NCBI RefSeq assembly: GCF_947568905.1
Contig: NC_079172.1
Location: 30,070,001-30,134,000 of the forward strand
Reading direction: 5' to 3'
Length of the DNA stretch: 64,000 bases
From: Ostrea edulis
Taxonomy: Eukaryota
Below the pieces are notes generated by a model that saw only the letters and a program-made list of their open reading frames with translations, ran no database searches and was not told where the DNA came from. Of the stretch, positions 13,611 through 59,766 are shown piece by piece; position 1 is the stretch's first letter; each line of letters starts with the position of its first letter. A program made the position numbers and the translations under genes.

Positions 13611-14963
13611 CGAACAATAATACAGTATACATATATAAACAAATGATGATTACACATTATATTGACAACTGTATTACTTATGTTTTCACTTGTCTGAAAA
13701 CATTGAGTGTTAATGACAATTTTATAGATTTACATTTCCAATGATTTTGTCGTTGGTATCTTTACATGAACGCGCTGCGGGTGTAAACATGCGTATATAC
13801 GTATATATATTATACATATACAACTACATATACTTGATAAATATATAGCCTATTTAAGCGGCTAGTTATTCCGAGAGAAATGATTTGAGTAATGTGTGTT
13901 GCCCCAGACTGAGAGACAATCATCAGTTGTATACAAAGACATAATGTATGAATTGTGGAAAAGCTTCCGTGGTTGGATCGAATGAGGGCAGAGATTTTAA
14001 GCGACAGGGATTTACACACATATGGTCAATATATGAATATTGTACTGCAGCGAGTTATCTAAACATACTTCAAGGATTTTGTTTACGTGTTACTGTGTCT
14101 AGCGGTTGGTTCGATATGCAGAGATGGAAATCTTTTCTGATTTTTTCATATTTCTTCTGATGCGTACGGATCAACAATCGTCGCTTGCTACCCTTACGAA
14201 ATCCGGGATTCTATGACGTGAGTGAACGGAGACAATGGGCGTGGTTTGTGTCGATGACGGACTAACATGCATTTTGTTTTGTGTTGTAGTTATTTGAGAA
14301 CAACCTCTTTCTATATAACCAATAATAAATCGATATTGCATTTTGAAATAGATTGTAAATCTTCGCCAGAAACATGTAAAGGGGTACCTGTAAAGTGCGA
14401 AACGAAATCGAAACGAAACGAAATCTACCGAAACGAAACGAAACCTACCGAAACGAAACCCACCGAAACGAAACGAAACCTACCGAAATGAAACGAAACA
14501 GATTGTATAACCGAACTCTTTTAATTATCATAATTAAAAATGGTATCTTAGGCCCCTGTGAAAGTTACCACATATAACATTCGCCTCCCCTTTGATGTAG
14601 GCTTTCGGCTTGACTGTTACAAAGTTTTAAAAGTTGGAAAAGGGTGGGTGGGGGGGGGGGGGGGGTAAGCACAAAGTACATATCCGTAGTTGATTAAATA
14701 CCATGTACAATTAGTTTTGGATCCATAAATTTCAGAACCGAGGGTTACAGTCTCAGAGATCTGGAGAAACACATTATACGAGGGGTGGGATCGCCGACGT
14801 TGGATCCGCCTTTGGGCATAGATACATTGTTTGAAGAAGCTCGTGTCTGAAAAAATTGAAAGCAGGAAGAGCTCTTAACCTCTTATTTTATCTCTAACTG
14901 CTGAGGTGCGAGTACTTTCAATAATGGAAAAACTCTATACATTTGGGGTGTTGCTAAGACGGG

Positions 14964-15301
14964 AGTAGTATAACGCGTCCCGATAGGGAGTTCAACTGAG
15001 TGCACTTTTTATGCAAATGAGGTCAAGCAAGAGCGTTTTTGATTGGTCAAGCGGTGTCGGGGTCAACGGAGTGCACTAGGACGGGGTCAACCCCAGCAGG
15101 GGTTGTAGAGCGGGTGAATAGACTGGCCTATGGCCGCTGGTCTATGATGCGGTACTTTCGCTTTGAGTTCCTGGAATGAGTTCCTGCTATTTTTCTGAAA
15201 ATCCAGTGAAATCCTGTGTATTAAATCTAAAAGAATAACAGTGTATTAAATCTAAAAGAATAACACAAGGTTTTAAGTTGACATGTTTATTAAAGAACAA
15301 T
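14964..15301 (+). repeat. Left TIR (338 bp)
   Basis: Exact reverse complement of 34725-35062 as read by eye; starts AGTAGTA; contains a 25-bp tandem duplication at 15216-15265. Confidence 0.97.
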
Positions 15302-15407
15302 AGTACAATCCCCAGAGGTGGCACGGTCCCTAGTTTTACCCAGCGCTGTCTACAGGTAATATATATATAAAGCGGCGCGCGGTGCATTGGGTGTCACTTT
15401 CGACATC

Positions 15408-19405: not shown

Positions 19406-19933
19406 ATGACGGACTACGAATCACTACATAACCCGGGTACACCACGTTATGCTCTACTGTCAGATCGAGTAACGTCGTTTGAAAATGCTCCCGAACACTT
19501 GCAGAACCTATTACCTACCATTGCAGAAGCGGGATACTTTTACAAAGGGTACGGGGATAACACGTGCTGTTTTTATTGCAACTTTGGACTTCACCATTGG
19601 GGAGCTGTCGACAATCCTTGGATACAACATGCTTATTGGTATCCTCACTGTCCTTACCTGAAGTGTAATAAGGGTAAACAATGGGTACGACAAGCCTTCA
19701 ATGCCTATGCCCGCGCTAAAGACAGTGGTTGCGATTGGGAAGGCTTACCCTTAGACGCGGCAGGGAATCCAATGTGTACCCAGAAATGTCACATTTGTTT
19801 AGAACGAGACTTGAGAATTGCTTTTTTACCTTGTGGTCATTTATGTACTTGTGCTATATGTGCTACGGGACTGAAACAATGTCCTATTTGTAGACATAGT
19901 GTTGAGCAAGCTGTACGTATTTTTATTTGTTAA
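19406..19933 (+). CDS. iap: Inhibitor of apoptosis (single BIR + C-terminal RING), 175 aa
   Basis: BIR RVTSF..AEAGYFY..CFYC..LHHW..D.PW.QH...PHCPYL; RING CHIC..LPCGHLCTCAIC..CPICR. Confidence 0.95.
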   Translation: MTDYESLHNPGTPRYALLSDRVTSFENAPEHLQNLLPTIAEAGYFYKGYGDNTCCFYCNFGLHHWGAVDNPWIQHAYWYPHCPYLKCNKGKQWVRQAFNAYARAKDSGCDWEGLPLDAAGNPMCTQKCHICLERDLRIAFLPCGHLCTCAICATGLKQCPICRHSVEQAVRIFIC

Positions 19934-26489: not shown

Positions 26490-27893
26490 ATGATGCACCG
26501 AGAATCTTGCGCTTGTGGCACCAGCAGTTTAGAACTGTTTAAAGTGCCCCCGACCAACGTCACTTTAGAAGATTCGAAATGGATGGAATATTATCCCATT
26601 TCCAGTACCCTCAACTCGGATACGGCTCCGATTGAATTTGAAATCAAAGGACAAGGAGATGAATATCTGGATTTATCCCAAACTTATCTCCAGATGGTAT
26701 GTAAATTCACGAAAGCCAATGGAACGAATCTCGCAGGAGGCAATTCGACCTCCACCCCCGTGAATAACATTCTCCATTCCTTGTTCAGTGAAATCGATGT
26801 CAGTCTCAATGGAAAAGTCATTACCCCGGGGACGGATACTTATCCCTACAAAGCGTATCTGGAGAAATTGTTGTCTTATGCACCCAAGACTCTGGAAACC
26901 CAGATGAGAGCCTGTAGCTTGTGGGAAAAAGATACGGCAGGACATATGGATGAGGTCAAATTAGAAGCTCTGGCTCAAACTCCTGTGGAATTTGCAGTAG
27001 TGTCTAACAAAGTCAACATCGCGGCCGTCATCCCGACTCCCGAGTATCCGGATGATTCCAAGAATGTAGGGTTGAGAAAACGTCACGAGAAGATTACAGA
27101 CAGTAAGGAGATCGTGTTGATGGATCGATTACATCTGGATTTGTTTGAGCAAGAGAAATGTCTCCCTAATGGCTTGGATGTCCGTCTCAGATTCAATCGC
27201 GCTCGACCCCAGTTCTACATGATGACCGCTGCCGGGAGTAGTGGGAAAGTGGCCATTCAAAGTATGATCTTGTGGGTGAGGAAAGTCAAACCTGTGCCGA
27301 GTATCATTAATCTCATCAATCAGCAACTGAGTACTCAAACGGCGAAATATCCATTGAGACGAGTGGAAGTGAAAACCTTCACCATTCCTAGTGGCACCCA
27401 ATCTAAAATCACCGATCATCTGTTTCAAGGACAGATGCCTAAACTGATCGTGTTGGGCTTTGTGGACAATGCGGCTTTTAATGGGGATAATACCAGAAAC
27501 CCCTTTCATTTCCAAAATGAGAGAGTCAAGAAATTAGAAATCAGTATCAATGGAGAAATGATGGAAACCCGACCTTTGGAACCTAATTTCACCGACGATC
27601 AGTACCTGAGATCGTATTTGAGTCTGTACAAAGGCTTGGGAAAATTAGGTCAGGACTGGGCTCCGGACATTACCCTGGAAGAGTATAAAAACGGTTACAC
27701 CCTCTGGTGTGTGGATTTCACGAAAGATCAAGAAGCCCAGACGGATAAATTTCATCTCATACAGACGGGGAACTTGAGAGTGGAAGTGCAATTTGCCGCC
27801 AACGTAGCCAGGACCTTAAACTGTGTGGTGTATGCCGTGTTCGACAATCTGCTAGAAATCAACAAACAACGAGAAGTCAGTATCGATTACTAA
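26490..27893 (+). CDS. MCP: Double jelly-roll major capsid protein (467 aa)
   Basis: C..SSLELF.VPPT; YLDLSQTYL; [10 protein letters not shown]; P..IVLGFV; GNLRVEV.F. Confidence 0.96.
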
Positions 27894-28398: not shown

Positions 28399-28500
28399 AC
28401 TATGTTATTGTTATTGTTCATAGTTGGAGTTTAATAAAACGTTGGAAAAAAAAAATTTCTTGTCATTGTAATCAACCATGTCTTTTCAAAAAGAATGGGT

Positions 28501-28516
28501 AGCCCTGAAAAGGGCT
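28501..28516 (-). terminator. Histone-mRNA-type 3' stem-loop AGCCCT-TTTC-AGGGCT followed by ACCCA and HDE-like GAAAAGAC
   Basis: Minus strand AAAAC AGCCCTTTTCAGGGCT ACCCA TTCTTTTT GAAAAGAC, 94 nt after the stop of 28611-28907. Confidence 0.8.
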
Positions 28517-28610: not shown

Positions 28611-28907
28611 TCACTGTCTGTTCTTCTTCTTCTTTCTTCTCTTCTTTTTCTGCTCCTCCGGGGGTTGCTCGTGGTCAAACACAAAAACGGGCAACCACCC
28701 GTGTTTAAAAAACAATCTCCCCGGAGGCCGCTGTACCACTTCTAACTCTGCGTCCCAGTTTTCTTCTGGCGGGGGCAGATCCTGGCTCATGGGCGGTGGG
28801 GGAAGAGCCTCCCGTGAGGCCGGCGGGGTAATCTCTTGCTCCCAATCCTCCTCCCATTTGATACAATAATCATTCACCGTAGGGTCTGGTCCTACTCTGC
28901 GGCTCAT
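28611..28907 (-). CDS. Unknown acidic/Pro-rich 98-aa protein with a basic NLS-like tail
   Basis: ATG-initiated, shared promoter motif upstream, stem-loop downstream. Confidence 0.65.
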   Translation of the reverse strand: MSRRVGPDPTVNDYCIKWEEDWEQEITPPASREALPPPPMSQDLPPPEENWDAELEVVQRPPGRLFFKHGWLPVFVFDHEQPPEEQKKKRRKKKKNRQ

Positions 28908-29663: not shown

Positions 29664-29775
29664 CTTTATTATAGCTTTATTCTAGCTATTACTTGTGTTA
29701 ATAAAAACTTTTTTAAAACAAACTTGTGTGTTTCTTGATTTTTGCCATAAAAAGTGTCTTTTCAAAAAAGTTGGT

Positions 29776-29791
29776 GGCCCTGAAAAGGGCC
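29776..29791 (-). terminator. Canonical histone-mRNA 3' stem-loop GGCCCT-TTTC-AGGGCC with CCAAAC/ACCAA flanks and HDE-like GAAAAGAC
   Basis: Minus strand CCAAAC GGCCCTTTTCAGGGCC ACCAA CTTTTTT GAAAAGAC, 22 nt after the stop of 29814-30602. Confidence 0.9.
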
Positions 29792-29813: not shown

Positions 29814-30602
29814 TCATTCCCTGGTTCCGGTAAACCGGCATAACGGGCACCGTCCCCGGGTGTGTCGCCGCTCCTGTAACTCTTCCACGCACGAGCAGCA
29901 AGCTGGGCGTTGCCCACATCCCCTGCACGTGATACCAGAGTGTACCCTGTCTTGCCAGCAGACAGGGCACTTAAACCAAATGGGAACCGCCCTATCTGCC
30001 CAGCCAGGGACAGTCATAGGGTGGTTCCTCGGGGGATGAGTTGCCACCGGTGCGTGGGTTGGTCTCGGTGGCGGAGTCCTCCCTGCAAACCGGATGGTAG
30101 GTGGTGGGGGTCTTGCAGGGGCTGCCGGTCTCGGTGGTGATGACGTGGCTGCCACCAGCAGCGACGGACTCTGGGCTGGACTGGGAGGTGGTGCGGGGGA
30201 CGGTGACCGCGGTGAATACTCCACCGGTGACGCTGGTGAGTCGCTCATCGGCACCGGGCTGTATTCCACTGGTGCCGATGGGATCGCTGGTGGTGGTGTT
30301 GTAGGCGTCGCCGGGGAGTAAGGTGGTGGTGGTGAGGGTGGCTGTGGGGCCCGTCGGCGCGGTCTCGTGGCCGTGGAGATCCGGGCGGTGCGGCGGCGGG
30401 GTGCCCTCCCTTCATACTCGGCCCGCACCCGGCAGATGATCTCACGGACCCCACTCTGGTCGAAAGGGGAGAAGGTGCTCAGGTCGTTCTCAGAACGCAC
30501 GACCCAATTCTCCCCTACCCGTTCCTCAGCCACCACTACCAGCCGGTACCGGAATCCAGGCAAGGTCTGAAAATTGTAGAGCGGGTCTCTTCTTGTAGCC
30601 AT
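29814..30602 (-). CDS. Pro-rich protein with C-terminal RING-like Zn finger (putative E3 ligase)
   Basis: CPVC-x-CRGC..CCSC-x-CPLC; PPPPY and YSP repeats; visibly GC-rich. Confidence 0.8.
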   Translation of the reverse strand: MATRRDPLYNFQTLPGFRYRLVVVAEERVGENWVVRSENDLSTFSPFDQSGVREIICRVRAEYEGRAPRRRTARISTATRPRRRAPQPPSPPPPYSPATPTTPPPAIPSAPVEYSPVPMSDSPASPVEYSPRSPSPAPPPSPAQSPSLLVAATSSPPRPAAPARPPPPTIRFAGRTPPPRPTHAPVATHPPRNHPMTVPGWADRAVPIWFKCPVCWQDRVHSGITCRGCGQRPACCSCVEELQERRHTRGRCPLCRFTGTRE

Positions 30603-31165: not shown

Positions 31166-31384
31166 TCAAATACATAACTCCCACACACAACACCAATTCA
31201 CATGTCTTTTTAAAATAGGGTCCAACATTTTTTCCATTTCTCGAATCCTGCGTTGAAATCGATAGCGATCAGCGGCTACAGTCATCCAGATACTTGTCCG
31301 GTCTTCTTCGGGTAACAGATGCACTTCATTTTGATCCAGATTAAAAGTCACACGTTTAACTTGACGTACATCTCTCGAAGACAT
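31166..31384 (-). CDS. DP71L/ICP34.5/GADD34-like PP1-eIF2alpha adaptor (72 aa)
   Basis: RVxF motif KRVTF plus R..W...AADRYRFQRRI..ME..L..IL; AATAAA 15 nt after the stop. Confidence 0.88.
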   Translation of the reverse strand: MSSRDVRQVKRVTFNLDQNEVHLLPEEDRTSIWMTVAADRYRFQRRIREMEKMLDPILKRHVNWCCVWELCI

Positions 31385-31653
31385 CGTAGTCTGATTTTCT
31401 CGATTTCTGCTCTGTCTGTGGGTCGAATTCGTTTCAATTCCTGGCCCATTAAATGAATCAGTACTAAGGCTTGCGGGGTGATCCGGTTCTCGATCAAATA
31501 CTGACAGAGACATGGATAGTCCTTTAAGCTGATGGGAAATAATTCTTCTCGCATATAGTGTAACACAAATTCAAACTGCCCAGAATGAATGTCTGTGAGA
31601 TAATCCAATACATAAACTATCGCTTTCTCTGTGATGTGGTCACTGCTGGCCAT
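31348..31653 (-). CDS. Helical multigene-family member A (probable divergent Bcl-2 fold), 101 aa
   Basis: FPISLKDY..LVLIHLMGQELKR.P..EIE; DNA around the start nearly identical to member B. Confidence 0.65.
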   Translation of the reverse strand: MASSDHITEKAIVYVLDYLTDIHSGQFEFVLHYMREELFPISLKDYPCLCQYLIENRITPQALVLIHLMGQELKRIRPTDRAEIEKIRLRCLREMYVKLNV

Positions 31654-31987
31654 CCTCCGGGAATAAATGAAATGAATTAAGTTCTTCACACTTTATGTAT
31701 ACTTCTCGAAGCCAGTCCTTGGTGATACTTTCAATCTCGGCGGTTTTTTCAGGCATGCGTTTCTTGAATTCCTCCCCCGCGACATAAATTAACATCAACC
31801 CCGCATCGTTATAGAGATTGATGTACACATGGTTCCGTAGATCTGTATATTCGTCCAGAGTCATTGGAAACACCCCCGCTATCAGATAATTTTTAACAGC
31901 TTGAAACACCGTATCGTCTTGCATTTTCTCCACCCATTCTAATGCATGGTTATGCGCTTTTTCTGCGATGTTGTCACTGCTGGCCAT
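31640..31987 (-). CDS. Helical multigene-family member B (probable divergent Bcl-2 fold), 115 aa
   Basis: FPMTLDEY..NDAGLMLIYVAGEEFKKRMPEK..EIE..WLREVY. Confidence 0.65.
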   Translation of the reverse strand: MASSDNIAEKAHNHALEWVEKMQDDTVFQAVKNYLIAGVFPMTLDEYTDLRNHVYINLYNDAGLMLIYVAGEEFKKRMPEKTAEIESITKDWLREVYIKCEELNSFHLFPEDGQQ

Positions 31988-32015
31988 CCTCCAGGAATAA
32001 AGGAAAAGAAAACGG

Positions 32016-32369
32016 TTAGGTTTTTTTATACACCTTTTCCAGCCAGTGATCGGTAATCGCTACAATCGCCCCAGTCTTCTCAGGTTCCCGTCGTCTAAAT
32101 TCTTGGTCCATGTTATAAATCATGATCAATCCAGACTCTCTGTTCAGGTTGTCGGCTATATGCTTGCAAACGCTGGAATATTCATATAAGGTCATAGGAA
32201 ATTCCCAAAAGATCAACAACTTCATGGCGAATTTATATCTCAACGGCTGTTTTTCTTTCCAGTCCTTGATACACTGTAATGCAGCGCTACGAGCGTTGTT
32301 CACCGATTCTTTGTAGTCCTCGAAATGCTGTAATACAGCGGTAAGAACGTTGTTGGTCAATTCAGCCAT
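32016..32369 (-). CDS. Helical multigene-family member C (probable divergent Bcl-2 fold), 117 aa
   Basis: FPMTLYEY..NRESGLIMIYNMDQEFRRREPEK..WLEKVY. Confidence 0.65.
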   Translation of the reverse strand: MAELTNNVLTAVLQHFEDYKESVNNARSAALQCIKDWKEKQPLRYKFAMKLLIFWEFPMTLYEYSSVCKHIADNLNRESGLIMIYNMDQEFRRREPEKTGAIVAITDHWLEKVYKKT

Positions 32370-32406
32370 GATGATCAAAATGAAAAAATTCCAAAACGTT
32401 CTTGTT

Positions 32407-32739
32407 TTATAACAGGCCAGCCATTCCTTTCATACGAATCAGTTCCACGAATCCTTTTTGTAGACAATCGCGTAAGATCCGATCAATGTCACTCATCTGG
32501 TCTGGAAGATTCTGTTTCAATTCCTCAGCATACAAATAAATCATGAGTAAACGTCCCGTATTGGTATTCTCCGCTAATGAATCAGCAATCCGTTGAAAAC
32601 TATGTACATTTCTGACCTCCGGTGACATCTGTTGTACAAATTGACGAGCATTTTGAATGTGAGGATTATGTAAGGCCACGTTCATACATTGTAGTACATA
32701 ACTATATCCATTTATTCTCGTAGTAGCACTGCCGCCCAT
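32407..32739 (-). CDS. Helical multigene-family member D, the most Bcl-2-like; possible N-myristoylation (MGGSAT), 110 aa
   Basis: BH1-like SFQRIADSL..TNTGRLLMIYLYAEEL; BH2-like LQKGFVELI. Confidence 0.65.
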   Translation of the reverse strand: MGGSATTRINGYSYVLQCMNVALHNPHIQNARQFVQQMSPEVRNVHSFQRIADSLAENTNTGRLLMIYLYAEELKQNLPDQMSDIDRILRDCLQKGFVELIRMKGMAGLL

Positions 32740-32843: not shown

Positions 32844-32878
32844 GTTTTTCTACAGTCATTCTTGTCTGACCTTCAGTC

Positions 32879-33385
32879 ATGGATACACGGAGAATTTTAA
32901 GAGCGAGACGCCGCCGCCAGGGAATACAACCAGTAGAGAATTTAACCATAGTAGAAGATTATGTAGACGAGATGGAGATCTGGGATAATTTAGTACAGAG
33001 ATGTCGCCATCGATTACGCTGGGGCCGATCTAAAAATTGGTGTTTTGACTATGTATTGCGGTCACATGAAACAGTGGAGGATATTTACCTGCGTTTAAGT
33101 GACATGTACCTGAAAAATTCCCCCCTCATACAGTACATGATTTACCAGTTTTACACGTTATTGAACGGCACTCAAAAAGTATCGGGATTTATTCGACTGG
33201 AGAAACCACGTTACCGGAGAAGTGTATGGGTATTGTTTTGGGATGCACACTGGATGTGGGAAACCGTCGAAGAGATACGTTTCCCCGGGAGAAGAGCTCG
33301 ACAATTAGTACAACACATTATATCCGAAGATCATGACTTACACGTGTATATAGAAGAACCTGCGTATGAAGCCGGCCATTTTTAA
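32879..33385 (+). CDS. Inactivated CRESS-DNA-virus Rep-like HUH endonuclease domain (168 aa)
   Basis: Motif I-like RSKNWCF; YMIYQ..NGTQKVSGFIRLEKP..AHW aligns by eye with circovirus-type YxIxxxE..GTPHLQGF..AHxE; catalytic His and Tyr absent. Confidence 0.65.
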   Translation: MDTRRILRARRRRQGIQPVENLTIVEDYVDEMEIWDNLVQRCRHRLRWGRSKNWCFDYVLRSHETVEDIYLRLSDMYLKNSPLIQYMIYQFYTLLNGTQKVSGFIRLEKPRYRRSVWVLFWDAHWMWETVEEIRFPGRRARQLVQHIISEDHDLHVYIEEPAYEAGHF

Positions 33386-33404
33386 AAATAAAAACTTCAT
33401 GCAC

Positions 33405-33420
33405 AGCCCTTTTTAGGGCT
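33405..33420 (+). terminator. Third histone-type stem-loop AGCCCT-TTTT-AGGGCT
   Basis: 19 nt after the stop of 32879-33385; flanks GCAC/ACTTT; no clear HDE; AATAAA also at 33387-33392. Confidence 0.6.
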
Positions 33421-33705
33421 ACTTTAAACACCAATATAAGTTCCATTCCACTAAAGTCAATGTGTACCAATGGGCACTAGCACGCGCTGGTCGCGAGAAA
33501 CCGGCTTTTCAAGTTCAATTAGTGCACTAGCACGCGCTGGTCGCGCGATGTTCTAGCTGAAACCGGTTTTTCCAGAAAAAGATGATGCAACCACGTGATC
33601 CCCACGTGCCCCTCACGAGACAGAATAGTCTAGACATTTTGCTGGCTATAAAAGCGGAGCCCCAGTGTCAGTCCTCATTCGATCTTCAATCACCTTCCAG
33701 AAGAC

Positions 33706-34623
33706 ATGGCTCAGAAACAACTAGAATTTGTGGACAAAGCTCAGAAGAAAATAGATCAGCTGGTACAGAAGGAGATGGGGCCACAGAAAGACTACATTGA
33801 ACTGAAGAAAGCTAAGAGTGACGATCAGAAGACTGAACTGGGGAAGACCTCGAACTTCTTGCTCACGTCTCCAGACTACGTTGCTCAAAGAAGAAGAGAA
33901 GAGAAGAAGATGGCCCAGACCTCGAACCAGACCACGAGCTTCAATCTCACGCCTTCAGACCACGTTGCTCGACAAGTGAAGATGGCCCAGACCTCGGATT
34001 ACCTCCCTAGCCAGAATCCGACAGACCCGGGATTAGGCTTCTATTTTCCCGATTCACAGGACGCTACGGGACTGGAGATGGGCTTATACGATAAACCCCC
34101 CTTCGGCGGAGAAGATTCCCCCATGAGCAGGACCGATTTCGCCATCATTACCACGACACTAGACGGGATCGTTAACCGCATTAATGTGCTGAGTAATGAG
34201 ATTGGAAATCATACCACAATCCTACTGAAGAAGCTGGAAGACCTGACTTCTAAAAAACCTAGGAAGGAATACACTCCAGATTACACTGCTAACCCGTGCT
34301 ACACGTGTGGAGAAACAGGACATTGGTCGCCGGATTGCCCACAGAAAACAGATTATCCGCAGACCAGTAAGAAATCGTGGTCGGCAGATTCTCAACAGAC
34401 CAGCAAGAAAACCAAACAAAAGGATCCTTGCTTCAAATGCGGAAAAATAGGACACTGGATTAGTGAGTGTCCAGAAGAACAAGCGGAGATAGATGCGATG
34501 ATTGGACCCGTACCTGGCTCAAAACCACCTGTGAAGAGAGAATACACACCGTTAGAGATGTGGAATCCACCCGCACCTACTGAAGAACGGCCAAAAAAGA
34601 AGAAGAAACTCAGCAGAAAGTAA
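33706..34623 (+). CDS. Double CCHC zinc-knuckle protein with coiled coil and NLS (305 aa)
   Basis: CYTCGETGHWSPDC and CFKCGKIGHWISEC; PKKKKK; TATAAAAG at 33647; AATAAA 34735 inside the right TIR. Confidence 0.85.
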   Translation: MAQKQLEFVDKAQKKIDQLVQKEMGPQKDYIELKKAKSDDQKTELGKTSNFLLTSPDYVAQRRREEKKMAQTSNQTTSFNLTPSDHVARQVKMAQTSDYLPSQNPTDPGLGFYFPDSQDATGLEMGLYDKPPFGGEDSPMSRTDFAIITTTLDGIVNRINVLSNEIGNHTTILLKKLEDLTSKKPRKEYTPDYTANPCYTCGETGHWSPDCPQKTDYPQTSKKSWSADSQQTSKKTKQKDPCFKCGKIGHWISECPEEQAEIDAMIGPVPGSKPPVKREYTPLEMWNPPAPTEERPKKKKKLSRK

Positions 34624-34724
34624 TGGACTGTGCTTGAACTGTTATACTTATTGAACTGTTTTTTATGCTTATTGAACTGTTTTTATGTTTATTGAATTGT
34701 TTTGCATTGTTCTATGCTTGTACC

Positions 34725-35062
34725 ATTGTTCTTTAATAAACATGTCAACTTAAAACCTTGTGTTATTCTTTTAGATTTAATACACTGTTATTCTTTTAGA
34801 TTTAATACACAGGATTTCACTGGATTTTCAGAAAAATAGCAGGAACTCATTCCAGGAACTCAAAGCGAAAGTACCGCATCATAGACCAGCGGCCATAGGC
34901 CAGTCTATTCACCCGCTCTACAACCCCTGCTGGGGTTGACCCCGTCCTAGTGCACTCCGTTGACCCCGACACCGCTTGACCAATCAAAAACGCTCTTGCT
35001 TGACCTCATTTGCATAAAAAGTGCACTCAGTTGAACTCCCTATCGGGACGCGTTATACTACT
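34725..35062 (-). repeat. Right TIR (338 bp)
   Basis: Ends ...CGTTATACTACT followed by TSD GACGGG. Confidence 0.97.
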
Positions 35063-36017
35063 GACGGGGAATTGAAAACGGGACGGAAAACGGAATTTTT
35101 TTAATGCAATAATATTAGGAGGAGGTCGGCATTTTGTAAACTGAAAAGGCTTAAGAACGAGGTAATTTTAAGCAGAAATCACAAAGAGAACGGGAGGGCA
35201 TATTCAGAATCCACCGTTTGATATACTACATACAAATACACAATATCCACATGTATACATATATTTGTCTTCAGAGCAAAAAATACTGAAACATGTATTT
35301 ATGTCCAAAGGCGGATCCAACGCCGACGACCCCATCCCTCGTTTAGTGTGTTTCCCCAGACCTCTGACCTGTGAGACTGTAACCTTCCGTTCTGAAATTG
35401 ATGATATTTATGTACTTTGTGCTTACCACCCCCCCCCCCCTTTCCAACTTTTAAAACTTTGTATCAGTCAAGCCGAAAGCCTACATCAAAAGGGAGGCGA
35501 ATTTTATTTATATGTGTAAACTTTAACAAGGGCCTAAGATACCATTTTTAATTATTATAAATAAAAGAGTTCAATTATACAATCTGTTTCGTTTCGTTTC
35601 GGTAGGTTTCGTTTCGTTTCGGTGGGTTTCGTTTCGTTTAGGTAGATTTCGTTTCGTTTCGGTAGATTTCGTTTCGTTTTGGTAGATTTCGTTTCGTTTC
35701 GTTTCGATTTCGTTTCGCACTTTACAGGTACCCCATGTAAAGTGGCATTATCAGCAAATAAATCGATGTTACAGTATATGGCCATAAATGAGTCATGATT
35801 TAATTTTTTTTTCGCTATAAAAATATGTAATGAGCTATCAATAACGTTGCAATAGGTTAAAAAAAATTTCAATGACATATGAAATGAGGACTCACTTATA
35901 CGGCCATATACTGTAGAGTTTTAAATGCATGGTGGATCATTACTGTAACACAGAAATAAAAGCGGTCATAGTATAGACCCTTGCGGAACTCCCGTTGCGA
36001 CTGACTGGTATTGGTTA

Positions 36018-39694: not shown

Positions 39695-39817
39695 TAGTCC
39701 GAAATATCTGACGTTTTCCTAGCCTTTTTTATGATTTTGATATTTAATATAGATATCAAAATCATATAAATATCAAGATCATAAAAATGCCAGGAAAACG
39801 TCAGATATTTCGGACTA
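39695..39817. mobile_element. MITE, TIR TAGTCCGAAATATCTGACGTTTTCCT, 9-bp TSD TGGGGAGGG
   Basis: TIRs and TSD read directly. Confidence 0.9.
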
Positions 39818-56000: not shown

Positions 56001-59000
56001 GGCGAGGTTCACTGATTTGACTGCTGATGAAATACAAAATTAATCAGAAGAAACGCTGACCAGAAACATGAAAATGTAATCATTAATTGGATATTGGGTT
56101 ATGTTTTCTTTTAAACTAGTGGATACGGTAAAAGTTCAAAGTCAACAAACCATGTGCACATATACATGTAGTAAAAACAAGCAAAATAAATGAAGGCAGT
56201 TATAGACCATGTCCTCAGACAACAGCTGTTTTGTTTGACCATCGAACGGATCTGAGGGCCAGTCAAACAATACAGCTGTTGTCCTTGAACCCAGTCAATA
56301 TCTTCTCAATATCAAAAAAATCTGAAAATTGAAAGGGGTCTTCCTCTGCCTAATCCAAGTATTATGTATAAAGTTTATGAAAATCTTTCCAAGAAATCAA
56401 GTTATTGTGTGCCATATGGTGGGGCCCTAATAATGTGATTAATAACACCATTTTATGGTGGGCCCTAATAATGTGATTAATAACACCATTTTAATGATCA
56501 TGAGCACCTTCAATATTTGTGTTTTCCATTATGATAGATGGCAGCAGTATTTGAACGATGACAATGCGAGTGGAACAGATAAGCAGCCAGTTTGCTATTT
56601 CTCAAATGTGAAACGATGCCCAAGTGATCTGGAAATTTGTCCCTCGCCAGCATCATATACCCTCAGCAGAAATCGAAACAGCAATACAACAGCAGGAGCT
56701 GCTCCTACAGTATCTGCAGCTAATGTCCACAGAATGTCCAATCTCTATCTGTCACAAAACTTACAAAATAGTCAGCAGAGTGCAACTTCGTCATGCTGGA
56801 CAAAGTCAACTTCCATGTCTGAATCTCATAATGACACATTGTTACAACCAACTTCATTGTCTGGAAATCCTACCATAAAACAACAGCAAACAGTAGCCAT
56901 AAAAGGGCTTCACGATACTGGAATTAACAATTCACAGGTACCACAGGAAAGTGATATAGAAATGACTCCAGTGCAAACACTGACAGGAAATCTTATTCCT
57001 ACCACCCCTCAAAACTTCGGAGACTATGCCCTCACCATTAATCCCATGAATTATGCAGATGACATTGTTTACCAGTGTGATCCAGCTTCCAATGTCAATG
57101 TGCCAAAGGATCAAGAGAAAACAGAAAGCATGGAATTTGGTTCCATTATGTCTAATGCAGTTAAGGCTCTGCATGGAGACCTGGATGTATACAATGCCGC
57201 TCCTGAACAGTATCAGTTATCTGAATACAACGAATCTGTGCCATACATGAATCCACAATTAGATGTTCCACCACTGTATGTGCAGCCCTCCGGATCAAAT
57301 GAGAACTGCCACATTTTCAAATATCAAGAGGAAAACAACAGACCCATTAAGAAGCGGTCGTACAAAATTATTGAAGGTCTCCTGGAGAATGAAGTGTGGA
57401 GGGCAAAGTTTTATCAAAACAAGTCAGCCTCAACGACCACCCAGTTACAGAATGTTGCAGCCTCAACGACCACCCAGTTACAGAATGTTACAGCCTCAAC
57501 GACCACCCGGTTACAGAATGTTGCAGCCTCAACGACCACCCAGTTACAGAATGTTACAGCCTCAACGACCACCCAGTTACAGAATGTTGCAGCCCCAACG
57601 ACCACTCAGTTACAGAATGTTACAGCCTCAACGACCACCCAGTTACAGAATGTTGCAGCCTCAACGACCACTCAGTTACAGAATGTTGCAGCCTCAACGA
57701 CCACTCAGTTACAGAATATTACAGCTTCAACACCTATACAGTTACAGAATGTTACTGCCTCAACGACCACTCAGTTACAGAACATTGCAGCCTCAATGAC
57801 CACTCAGTTACAGAGTGATACTGCCTCAACGACCACTCAGTTACAGAATATGGCAGCCTCAACAACCACTCTGTTACAAAACGATACAACCTCAACACCC
57901 ATTCCATTACAGAATGTTACAGCCTCAACATTCACTCCATTACAGAATGTTACAACTTCAACTCCATTACAGAATGTTACAGCCTCATTCTCAATGCCAT
58001 TACAGAATGTTACAGCCTCAACACCCACTCCATTACAGAAAGTTTCAGCCTCATTCTCCACGCCATTACAGAATGTTACAGCCTCATTCTCCACTCCATT
58101 ACAGAATGTTACAGCCTCAACACCCACTCCATTACAGAATGTTTCAGCCTCATTCTCAATGCCATTAAAGAATGTTACAGCCTCATTTGCCATGCCATTA
58201 CAGAATGTTACAGCCTCATTTGCCATGCCATTACAGAATGTTACAGCTTCAACATCCACTCCATTACAGAATGTTACAGCCTCATTCTCCACACCATTAC
58301 AGAATGTTACAGCCTCAACACCCACTCCATTACAGAATGTTACAGCCTCAACATTCACTCCGTTACAGAATGTTACAACTTCAACTCCATTACAGAATGT
58401 TATAGCCTCATTCTCCACACCATTACAGAATGTTACAGCCTCAACACCCACTCCATTACAGAATGTTTCAGCCTCATTCTCCATGCCATTACAGAATGTT
58501 ACAGCCTCATTCTCCACTCCATTACAGAATGTTACAGCCTCAACATCCACTCCATTACATAATGTTGCAGCCTCAACACCCATTCCATTACATAATGTTG
58601 CAGCCTCAACACCCACTCCATTACAGAATGTTACAGCCTCATTCTCCACTCCATTACAGTATGTTACAGCCTCAATCTCCACTCCATTACAGAATGTTAC
58701 AGCCTCAACACCCACTCCATTACAGAATGTTACAGCCTCATTCTCCACTCCATTACAGTATTTTACAGCCTCAACATCCACGCCATTACAGAATATTAGA
58801 GCCTCAACACCCATTCCGTTAGCGAATGTTACAAATGATTGTGTATCACAAGACAGGGTACAGATTCACAGTGAAGAAAGAGAAAACGAAGCAAGTTGTC
58901 ACACAGCAGTAAGGGACAATCATATAAGCGAGAAACATGATGACAGTAATGTTACTACAAATATTCTGCAAAAGGTCGACTCTGATGTAGCACACATGTC

Positions 59001-59766
59001 AGCTAGTCAAGCTGGGCCTTTGAATGAAACTCAAGAAACTGGTGAATACGTAGAACTGCTCCTAGGATTAAAAGCAGATAATGTGAATTCTATAGAACAA
59101 AATCAAAGCGAGACAACAGTCATCTACGACACCGAGTACAGCAAAGATAGTGGAAGTTTAAATGAAGAGGTTGCGGAACTAGAAGTCAAAAGAACAGAAA
59201 ACTTTGAGATTCTGGTGGAGACTAAACGTAACGACCATAATGGATCTAATTTGCAGTATGACATGGAGATTGGACCTGCAGAAAAATCAGGAGTTGACGA
59301 TGAAGAGGATTCAAGTAAAAAATATTCTGAGGTAGAAATTGTCATTGATAATGCAGAGGAGCTGTCTGTGACATCTTGTGAAGAAAAATATTACAGCAGT
59401 AATTTATCAGAAGCTGTGTCAGAAACCACAGATGATGGGGGTCCTAGAGAAGTTAAGGAAGAAGTTGTGAAAGACAATGTCTCTGAATCTTTACCTAATC
59501 AGGGAGAGAGCCTCAATTCAAAGAATATGGTGATTTATAGTAACATGCAACAAAATCCCAAAGATGATCATGAACAACTAAAATGCTCCAACAAGTTCGA
59601 ATGTACAGGAGATCATTCAAATTTGGAGTCAGGAGATGCCCCCAGAAGTGTAAAGGACATAGCTCTGGAAACAAAAAACAAATCCACTAGATCTATGAAA
59701 TCTGTAAATAAGAAGAGGCATCAATACAATTCACCGGTCCGTGCATCTAAAAGACATAAGCAATGA
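42156..59766 (+). CDS. SoxH: SoxH/Sox30-like HMG-box transcription factor, 8 exons: 42156-42591, 43735-43989, 50930-51436, 51550-51723, 51888-52140, 54269-54402, 54709-54826, 56538-59766 (5106 nt, 1701 aa)
   Basis: HMG VKRPMNAFMLWAR..NAEIS..LG..W..HRKDFPG|WVYQP resembles Sox30; all introns GT-AG with compatible phases (1,1,1,1,2,1,2). Confidence 0.85.
45059..45433. mobile_element. 375-bp near-perfect palindromic MITE, CACAGG termini, 8-bp TSD GATTTATG
   Basis: Arms mirror each other over most of the length; TSD at 45051-45058 and 45434-45441. Confidence 0.88.
47493..47620. mobile_element. 128-bp palindromic MITE, CACAGG termini, 8-bp TSD ATGAAAAC
   Basis: TSD at 47485-47492 and 47621-47628. 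Confidence 0.88.
48095..49393 (+). mobile_element. Helentron-type non-autonomous element with satellite units
   Basis: 5' TTTTTAGGTCACCTGAATAAACTCAGGTGACC; 3' CAGGTGACCGATAAGGCC..CTCTTGTT. Confidence 0.7.
49454..49550. mobile_element. MITE-like relic related to 10101 and 40209 (no TSD seen)
   Basis: CAGTCTGATTAAAACCAGA..TCTGGTTTTAATCAAACTG. Confidence 0.55.
50638..50846 (+). mobile_element. 5'-truncated 3' end of the Penelope-like retroelement
   Basis: Matches 10800-11005. Confidence 0.75.
52888..54010. mobile_element. Helentron-type element(s), degenerate
   Basis: TTTTTTAGCTCACCTGAGCTAAAAGCTCAAGTG start; satellite-like interior. Confidence 0.55.
57423..58830 (+). repeat. Coding 33-bp (11-aa) tandem repeat, ~42 units, in the last SoxH exon
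   Basis: ASTTTQLQNVA/T block followed by AS(F/T)(S/P)TPLQNVT block. Confidence 0.92.

Follow-up and report, generated by a model that had tools for sequence, protein, structure and literature searches.

A host-type histone stem-loop without a U7 signal behind the Rep-like gene of a Maverick/Polinton element in Ostrea edulis

The window analysed here is a stretch of 64,000 nucleotides from Ostrea edulis. It contains a Maverick/Polinton element with three histone-type stem-loops, SL1, SL2 and SL3, each following a gene that does not code for a histone. Judged from the DNA, the third of these, SL3, is a true histone-type hairpin that stands beyond chance and beside a poly(A) signal; it is homologous between lineages of the element, identical to a hairpin of the host, and without the U7 signal. 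We propose, with a probability of about one half, that SL3 may be an SLBP site on a polyadenylated mRNA, at which a hairpin of the host type has been kept without the docking signal for U7. The features of the region are as follows.

14964-35062, no strand assigned: Maverick/Polinton element of 20,099 bp, recognised by TIRs, target duplication and protein hits
28481-28487, minus strand: GAAAAGA, the HDE of SL2, from the sequence
28501-28516, minus strand: SL2, 94 nt after the 98-aa ORF 28611-28907
29757-29763, minus strand: GAAAAGA, the HDE of SL1, from the sequence
29776-29791, minus strand: SL1, same sequence as the H2B hairpin of the host; the 262-aa Pro-rich gene ends 22 nt before it
29814-30602, minus strand: 262-aa Pro-rich gene with a C-terminal RING-like Cys pattern seen by eye and no Pfam hit
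32879-33385, plus strand: 168-aa Rep-like gene, predicted CRESS-virus Rep (HUH) endonuclease fold, no helicase domain
33387-33392, plus strand: AATAAA, the sole canonical poly(A) signal from the Rep-like stop to the next gene
33405-33420, plus strand: SL3, third histone-type stem-loop, stem AGCCCT/AGGGCT and loop TTTT as in the host histone H1 hairpin, no HDE downstream
33421-33441, plus strand: tail kept together with SL3 between lineages; the likeness to subfamily A2 stops at 33441
33647-34623, plus strand: TATA box (33647) and zinc-knuckle (zf-CCHC) gene (33706-34623); the stretch ahead varies between subfamilies

The hairpin and the element that carries it

The 16-mer at 33405-33420 is AGCCCTTTTTAGGGCT. 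The stop codon TAA (33383-33385) ends 19 nt upstream of it, and the spacing from AATAAA to SL3 is 13 nt. Neither GAAAAGA nor GAAAGA occurs within 33386-33705, before the next gene. The stem is that of SL2, and the two hairpins differ at loop position 4, which is U in SL3 and C in SL2. A preliminary description of this DNA had reported the hairpin and its distance from the stop, the AATAAA just upstream, the stem shared with the copy at 28501 and the absence of a downstream element, and the sequence bears out each of these points. Its argument that three hairpins placed 3' of genes in the sense orientation exceed chance is also upheld: a degenerate histone-hairpin pattern has three matches in the 64-kb window and none in 100 shuffles, and all three hairpins lie in sense and 3' of an ORF, at 22 (SL1), 94 (SL2) and 19 nt (SL3) from the stop.

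SL3 has a 6-bp stem, a 4-nt loop, U at loop positions 1 and 3, and the G2-C and top U-A pairs. In local contexts this hairpin is the predicted fold, with pair probabilities of 0.91-1.0, and the folding z of its 63-nt context is -2.1. In the covariance check against RF00032, SL3 scores 22.3 bits (E 0.11 when the whole window is searched and 0.016 for 9 kb), which is below the gathering score of 34 bits for a canonical histone 3' end, while SL1 scores 40.2 and the HDE-bearing SL2, at 32 bits, is also below it. The low score of SL3 is due to bits lost in the flanks, since the 16-mer itself equals the host H1 hairpin. In the tail at 33421-33441, CA at 33429-33430 and at 33432-33433 are candidate cleavage sites, and AATATA at 33433-33438 lies in the register of the HDE in host genes.

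The element has identical TIRs of 345 nt (14964-15308 and 34718-35062) that start with AGTAGT, and a 6-bp target duplication, GACGGG; TIRs with AGT ends and a duplication of this length identify it as a Maverick/Polinton. Its genes include pPolB, IAP, an A32-like ATPase, an rve integrase with a chromodomain, a likely DJR capsid and an adenain-type protease. The Pfam matches are PF03175 (E 2.5e-57), rve (E 1.3e-10), Pox_A32 (E 5.4e-7) and Peptidase_C5, at 21.0 bits just under the cut-off of 21.3, and the core set of PolB, integrase, ATPase and protease is present. The capsid candidate (26490-27893) has no Pfam hit; its atlas neighbours at 0.98 carry the DJR-like PF21738 in 14-24% of members. 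The family is young, with about 80 near-identical copies in the genome, which was searched over 895 Mb with all hits on ten large contigs.

Several other features of the region were observed. The Maverick is nested in another element, whose inverted ends of GAAAC repeats are at 14402-14655 and 35426-35683. The minus strand has, at 31348-32739, four small ORFs that are paralogues of each other (101-117 aa, with a likeness of 30-40% by tblastn), one of them with a weak Bcl-2 match (E 0.007). They are followed by an ORF with a PP1-binding region (31166-31384, E 1.7e-5), and together with the IAP at 19406 they look like a block of host-control genes. Before the zinc-knuckle gene, at 33506-33590, lies a module of which lineage B has a duplicate ahead of the Rep-like gene and which gives way to another stretch in subfamily A2 (both described below); the number of its repeats varies among copies (L096, L071, L074 and L081 in the module comparison). 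Long near-perfect inverted repeats at 45089-45412 and 39697-39815, with Rfam microRNA matches far below gathering, are probably MITE-like, and a plus-strand ORF of 1103 aa (56455-59766) lies over a 33-nt tandem repeat.

The gene immediately in front of SL3 had been called a dead Rep-like gene. A structure model made from 17 sequences (pLDDT 67) has its best Foldseek matches among circovirus, vientovirus and other Rep domains (E 3e-4 in PDB, 2e-6 in BFVD), and by this model the 168-aa protein has the Rep nuclease fold. The comparison of VIA with PCV2 Rep' gave Z 8.3, rmsd 3.3 and 87 aligned, values tied with those of unrelated ferredoxin-like folds, and Pfam Viral_Rep (PF02407) gave weak hits in 7 of the 17 members with a score below the cut-off. 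There is no His in the strand 99-111 and no Tyr in the helix 137-149, which we take to be the positions of the catalytic residues of motif II and motif III, and the protein ends at 168 aa. No frameshift interrupts the reading frame in 62 of 65 loci. The pN/pS ratio is 0.29 for shared variants and 0.60 for singletons; the difference between the two is not significant (p 0.16), but the shared variants alone depart from neutrality with p 0.0005. The gene is under purifying selection and is not a pseudogene. The earlier wording is therefore retained for the fold and for the missing catalytic His and Tyr, and "dead" describes the enzyme but does not apply to the gene.

A genome search with the Rep-like protein gave 148 matches, which fall at about 86 places of family A and about 50 places with 27-59% identity. 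Queries with the Rep-like, RING-like and capsid sequences had no hits among viral contigs, and the Rep-like alignment found nothing in metagenome contigs. For the Rep-like protein, no useful match came from PDB sequence searches, from the atlas or from the phage collection, its single-sequence fold had no matches, and the protein library searched contains only five relatives, which come without genomic context.

Comparison with the histone 3' ends of the host

SL3 agrees at 16 of 16 nt with the histone H1 stem-loop of this genome (loci L122, L123 and L125). Because the match is complete, its A-U pair and the U at loop position 4 are native features and not signs of decay. In the host clusters that were fetched, H1, H2A, H2B, H3 and H4 each have a hairpin at the 3' end that is followed by an AC-rich flank and, at +13 or +14, by GAAAAGA. 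The host hairpins themselves vary (L122, L128 and L130): H2A, H3 and H4 have G-C at stem position 5, and one H4 type has a TATA-like loop variant, GGCCGT-TATA-ACGGCC, with A at loop position 2.

The HDE was defined as a purine-rich element 13-15 nt after the stem, which in this host is GAAAAGA. It is present in all 19 distinct host contexts and in none of the 37 distinct SL3 contexts, the latter being assigned on the three letters that follow the stem, without regard to the HDE, with contexts of one lineage not independent of each other. Other contexts, mostly SL1 and SL2 with L131, L132, L135 and L210 in addition, have it in 55 of 59 cases. Cleavage by U7 at SL3 is unlikely in view of this difference between host and SL3.

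The sequence between stem and HDE also differs. The five nucleotides after the SL3 stem are ACTTT in the window and ACTTT, ATTTT or ACTAA across the SL3 contexts, and in the host they are ACCAA (12), ACACA (5) or ACCTA (2; n = 19), none of which occurs in an SL3 context. The host-type cleavage flank, AC-rich over five nucleotides and ending in A, is thus absent from SL3. The 5' flank takes part in SLBP binding. It is TGCAC in family A and AAAAC in lineage B, compared with CAAAC, AAAAC and ACAAA in the host; TGCAC is without the A at -3 that is present in 19 of 19 host contexts. The flanks CCCAC and CCCCC precede HDE-bearing Maverick hairpins. Upstream, AATAAA or ATTAAA occurs within 70 nt in 30 of 37 SL3 contexts, 11 of 59 others and 0 of 19 in the host. 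The ATTAAA of lineages B, C and D is derivable from the Tyr-stop codons alone; the lineage A gene no longer ends in Tyr-TAA-A, and a separate AATAAA is present.

With the HDE and the cleavage flank both failing, SL3 is placed by its sequence outside the canonical class of histone 3' ends. It likely works like the SLBP-binding half of such an end. The host genome contains an SLBP RNA-binding domain, PF15247, above the cut-off, at 75155048-75157060 of the contig from which the window is taken, and SL3 retains the loop U1 and U3, which matter for SLBP binding (PMC4604434).

Hairpins with an HDE were also observed at other places. In lineages B and C, SL1 and SL2 have in addition a later TGAGAA-like box, as after host histone genes. 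A hairpin with an HDE and no histone ORF in the fetched stretch is found at L131:4988, L132:4583 (plus strand), the L132 3937 region (minus strand), L135:4749 and L210:5075; the two of L132 lie on opposite strands, one of them after a 132-aa ORF. Among 34 metagenome matches to the combined hairpin and HDE, 12 follow histone ORFs and three (L226, L233 and L237) follow non-histone ORFs on contigs with hits to the proteins of the element, the protein likeness being 44% for the protease, 52% for the capsid and 31% for the RING-like protein. Contig L241 resembles L226. The full signal after non-histone genes in L226, L233 and L237 suggests that the borrowing may be wider than this genome. In viral contigs the same pattern had three matches, all rejected as phage-like chance matches.

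SL3 across copies and lineages

In flank-anchored searches of family A, SL3 is altered in 3 of 79 copies and intact in 76, compared with alterations in 5 of 83 for SL1 and 2 of 79 for SL2 (SL3 against the others, p 1.0). The three altered copies each have a different single change. No variant of SL3 is shared among the 65 fetched loci of family A, which were selected so as to cover the most divergent; for a stretch of 16 nt this absence does not reach significance (p 0.23).

For the divergent matches 40 loci were fetched, namely 39 of the approximately 50 divergent places and L094. Lineage B (n = 22) has 13 perfect SL3 hairpins with C at loop position 4, seven with one change and two loci without the hairpin. 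Lineage C (16 of the 40 loci, one truncated) has no hairpin, and the gene runs into the next TATA box; several intact ORFs of the same gene are found in this lineage, so that the hairpin is dispensable there. L094 belongs to subfamily A2 and L097 is a further type. Of the 15 lineage B loci that have all three hairpins, three show a changed SL3, and none of their 30 SL1 and SL2 hairpins is changed (p 0.03 in a post hoc test), an excess that counts against strong constraint. A (CA)n spacer in lineage B places the hairpin 17-71 nt after the stop, and cleavage for poly(A) could therefore precede the hairpin in these copies.

The comparison of subfamily A2 with lineage B gives the clearest contrast. 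Subfamily A2 (L094, L152, L153, L155, L158 and L163) has the gene of the window, the hairpin and 21 nt, followed by a different downstream stretch. In run X1, a contig of 1,027 nt can be aligned with 32856-33441, beyond which it diverges like subfamily A2. The Rep-like proteins of A2 and B are identical at 60 of 132 residues (45%), with four-fold sites at 7 of 18. In a tree of 27 rows the two clades are separated by about 1.1 amino-acid changes per site; its root is poorly supported (48/71) and compatible both with a loss in lineage C and with a gain elsewhere. At this distance the hairpins agree at 15 of 16 positions, with the sole difference at loop position 4, and the following approximately 20 nt at 16-17 of 21, which gives an island with 31-32 of 37 nt alike. 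The flanks are at the level of shuffled sequence, the 19 nt before the stem agreeing at 9 of 19 (shuffle about 0.5) and the 100 nt beyond at about 0.48 (shuffle 0.43). Three background rates were applied to this one contrast, and each gives the island a binomial p of 0.002 or less. The elements are mosaics with swapped promoters, and the 37-nt island could for this reason be a recombination tract.

Decayed copies (L097, L195 and L196) have two HDE-less hairpins in tandem with unlike spacers, and in the first hairpin of L097 stem positions 4/13 are T/A, both partners having changed with the pair preserved; two other changes are also present. Crossovers between lineages map at or just after SL3; a finer mapping to 33423-33428 was weakened by L196, which has the same C at +2. 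As a whole, SL3 was probably kept by selection in three of four lineages and is dispensable in one. Conservation in sister elements, a point raised in the preliminary description, thus holds in family A and in the island shared by A2 and B and fails in lineage C. The suggestion that SL3 is a decaying copy is for the most part not sustained, given the frequencies of change in family A and the island between deep lineages.

A related explanation is that SL3 is a vestige. The gene would once have had a full histone-type end, the HDE would have been lost when a promoter module took the place of the downstream sequence, the gene would have switched to AATAAA, and the hairpin would ride along and be spread by recombination. 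We regard this as rather unlikely, though to be taken seriously. The lack of a hairpin in lineage C, its precise absence from the lineage B copy L099, the excess of changes in lineage B, and the mosaic genomes with swapped promoters would all be expected from a vestige, and the flank (CA)n-AAAAC-AGCCCT of lineage B resembles that of an HDE-bearing hairpin in the distant Maverick contig L233. However, a vestige would hardly be conserved as an island while the adjoining gene accumulated about 1.1 amino-acid changes per site, with the sole A2/B difference of the hairpin at a free loop position. The old tandem duplicates in L097, L195 and L196 and the absence of excess damage in family A (3 of 79 against 7 of 162) also argue against it.

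Proposed role, alternatives and known systems

If SL3 is an SLBP site on a polyadenylated mRNA, CPSF would recognise AAUAAA at 33387 and the hairpin would fold out between the hexamer and the cut; RNA folding between a poly(A) signal and the cut is a known arrangement. The cut could fall within SL3 or at the CA sites 9-13 nt after it, for example at 33429-33433, about 22 nt from the hexamer if the 16 nt of the hairpin are discounted. The product would be an mRNA with a stem-loop plus poly(A). Host SLBP would bind SL3 and may contribute to end formation or act on translation or stability; germ cells are the most plausible setting, since the element must be expressed there to be inherited. The element would then use two arms of the histone pathway: the two genes to the left would have full U7-type ends, and the Rep-like gene an end that relies on SLBP alone. 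The identity with the H1 hairpin including loop U1 and U3, the HDE counts, the A2/B island, the upstream hexamer, the tandem hairpins, the low damage in family A, the host SLBP domain and the oocyte precedent given below speak for this reading. A stem-loop inside a polyadenylated mRNA is not known to confer S-phase decay, and this counts against it, as do the missing hairpin of lineage C, the changed SL3 copies and the (CA)n spacer of lineage B, the mosaic make-up of the elements, the TGCAC flank and the possible origin of ATTAAA from the stop codons.

A wider form of the proposal is that the Maverick took over both arms of histone mRNA processing for non-histone genes: U7-cut, non-polyadenylated ends on two of them, and on the nuclease-dead Rep gene an HDE-less, SLBP-recruiting hairpin for U7-independent polyadenylation of the oocyte type, which would give separate S-phase and germ-line control. 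We hold this wider form to be unlikely.

The hairpin might also act only through its structure, by setting the distance from AAUAAA to the cut or by shielding the next promoter from read-through, without participation of SLBP. SL3 does lie where the cut is expected after the sole AATAAA, the 20 nt after it are also conserved, and the hairpin-less lineage C runs straight into the next TATA box. A spacer, however, needs no histone-specific stem and TTTN loop, and the SL3 sequence stays within the host histone set. This makes such a purely structural role improbable.

The preliminary description had proposed, besides a decaying copy, a dual-mode end, by poly(A) or by stem-loop. The poly(A) part of this is supported, as a poly(A) signal adjoins the hairpin; the U7-cut part is not supported, with the HDE missing from all SL3 contexts and the host cleavage flank replaced. 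A true dual mode, in which a cryptic HDE directs a U7-dependent cut 5 nt after the stem in S phase and poly(A) is used otherwise, is quite improbable. The perfect H1 hairpin would suit it, ATATAAG at the HDE register is a weak look-alike, and dual ends are known for H2A.X and H2AC18 (PMC5100578 and PMC9756948). Nevertheless, the known dual-mode genes retain the HDE, which is invariant in the host and absent at SL3, and in mouse extract the loss of the purine core of the HDE reduces processing to less than 5% (PMC7026596). The pairing of SL3 was judged on an inferred U7 arm, the host U7 not having been found: a pattern search of the host for U7 snRNA gave 21 matches against 30 in the control, none of the 21 with a convincing 3' hairpin, a second pattern set, judged from the matched strings only, gave 5 against 2, and RF00066 had one match (E 0.93). 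The pairing energy with this arm is -2.0 kcal/mol, which 92% of random 25-mers equal or exceed; the test is a weak one, as SL1 and SL2 reach only -5.6.

Finally, the hairpin could act at the DNA level as a palindrome, bound by a protein, nicked by the Rep-like protein or serving as a hot spot of recombination. Such a role would agree with the lineage crossovers and with the position of SL3 3' of a Rep-fold gene but is very improbable, as the protein is without the catalytic residues, the sense orientation and the TTTN loop, which is strand-specific, are those of an RNA signal, and the loop is presumably not a CRESS nonanucleotide.

According to published descriptions, histone mRNAs alone among cellular mRNAs have this hairpin at their end (PMC4604434 and PMC5100578). 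In the literature covered, in which few subscription journals are represented, no report of histone-type stem-loops on Polinton/Maverick, adintovirus or viral mRNAs, or of U7 in connection with a virus, appeared among the papers listed, several of the lists being judged by title or term count. The adintovirus paper (PMC8502044) mentions histone once and polyadenylation not at all. A 2026 preprint (10.64898/2026.10.14.759114) examined large DNA virus genomes and finds neither SLBP nor processing factors in them; the words non-histone and transposon do not occur in it. A mobile element with host-identical hairpins, two with an HDE and one without, is a natural test of SLBP with and without U7, and also of whether non-histone genes can use the histone 3'-end pathway. 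The stronger novelty lies in the full signals of SL1 and SL2; SL3 matters chiefly as the U7-less variant.

SL3 resembles a canonical histone 3' end in its H1 hairpin, its position 19 nt after the stop, its sense orientation and its loop U1 and U3, and SL1 and SL2 match host hairpins together with the HDE in sequence and spacing. Unlike the canonical end, SL3 follows a non-histone gene of a virus-like element, has no HDE, has ACTTT in place of ACCAA or ACACA, and has AATAAA upstream. Maternal histone mRNAs of Drosophila and Xenopus oocytes undergo SLBP-dependent, U7-independent polyadenylation (PMC11997800). The end proposed for SL3 would be of this kind, with poly(A) in or beside the hairpin; the oocyte genes, however, keep the HDE and canonical processing in other cells, while the DNA of SL3 is without an HDE and has its poly(A) signal upstream. 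The dual-mode genes H2A.X, H2AC18 and H1C (PMC5100578 and PMC9756948) likewise combine a hairpin and a poly(A) signal at one 3' end, and SL3 has AATATA at the HDE register, but those genes have a working HDE and a poly(A) signal after the hairpin, whereas the canonical signal of SL3 stands before it.

The Rep-like protein is similar to the CRESS Rep HUH domain in its best Foldseek matches and differs in the absence of a helicase, of His in the motif II strand and of Tyr in the motif III helix. The element as a whole agrees with Maverick/Polintons of the adintovirus type (PMC8502044) in its AGTAGT TIRs, 6-bp duplication, pPolB, ATPase, rve and adenain protease, and probably in a DJR capsid-like gene. 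It is set apart from those in the literature covered by the histone-type RNA ends predicted for its accessory genes.
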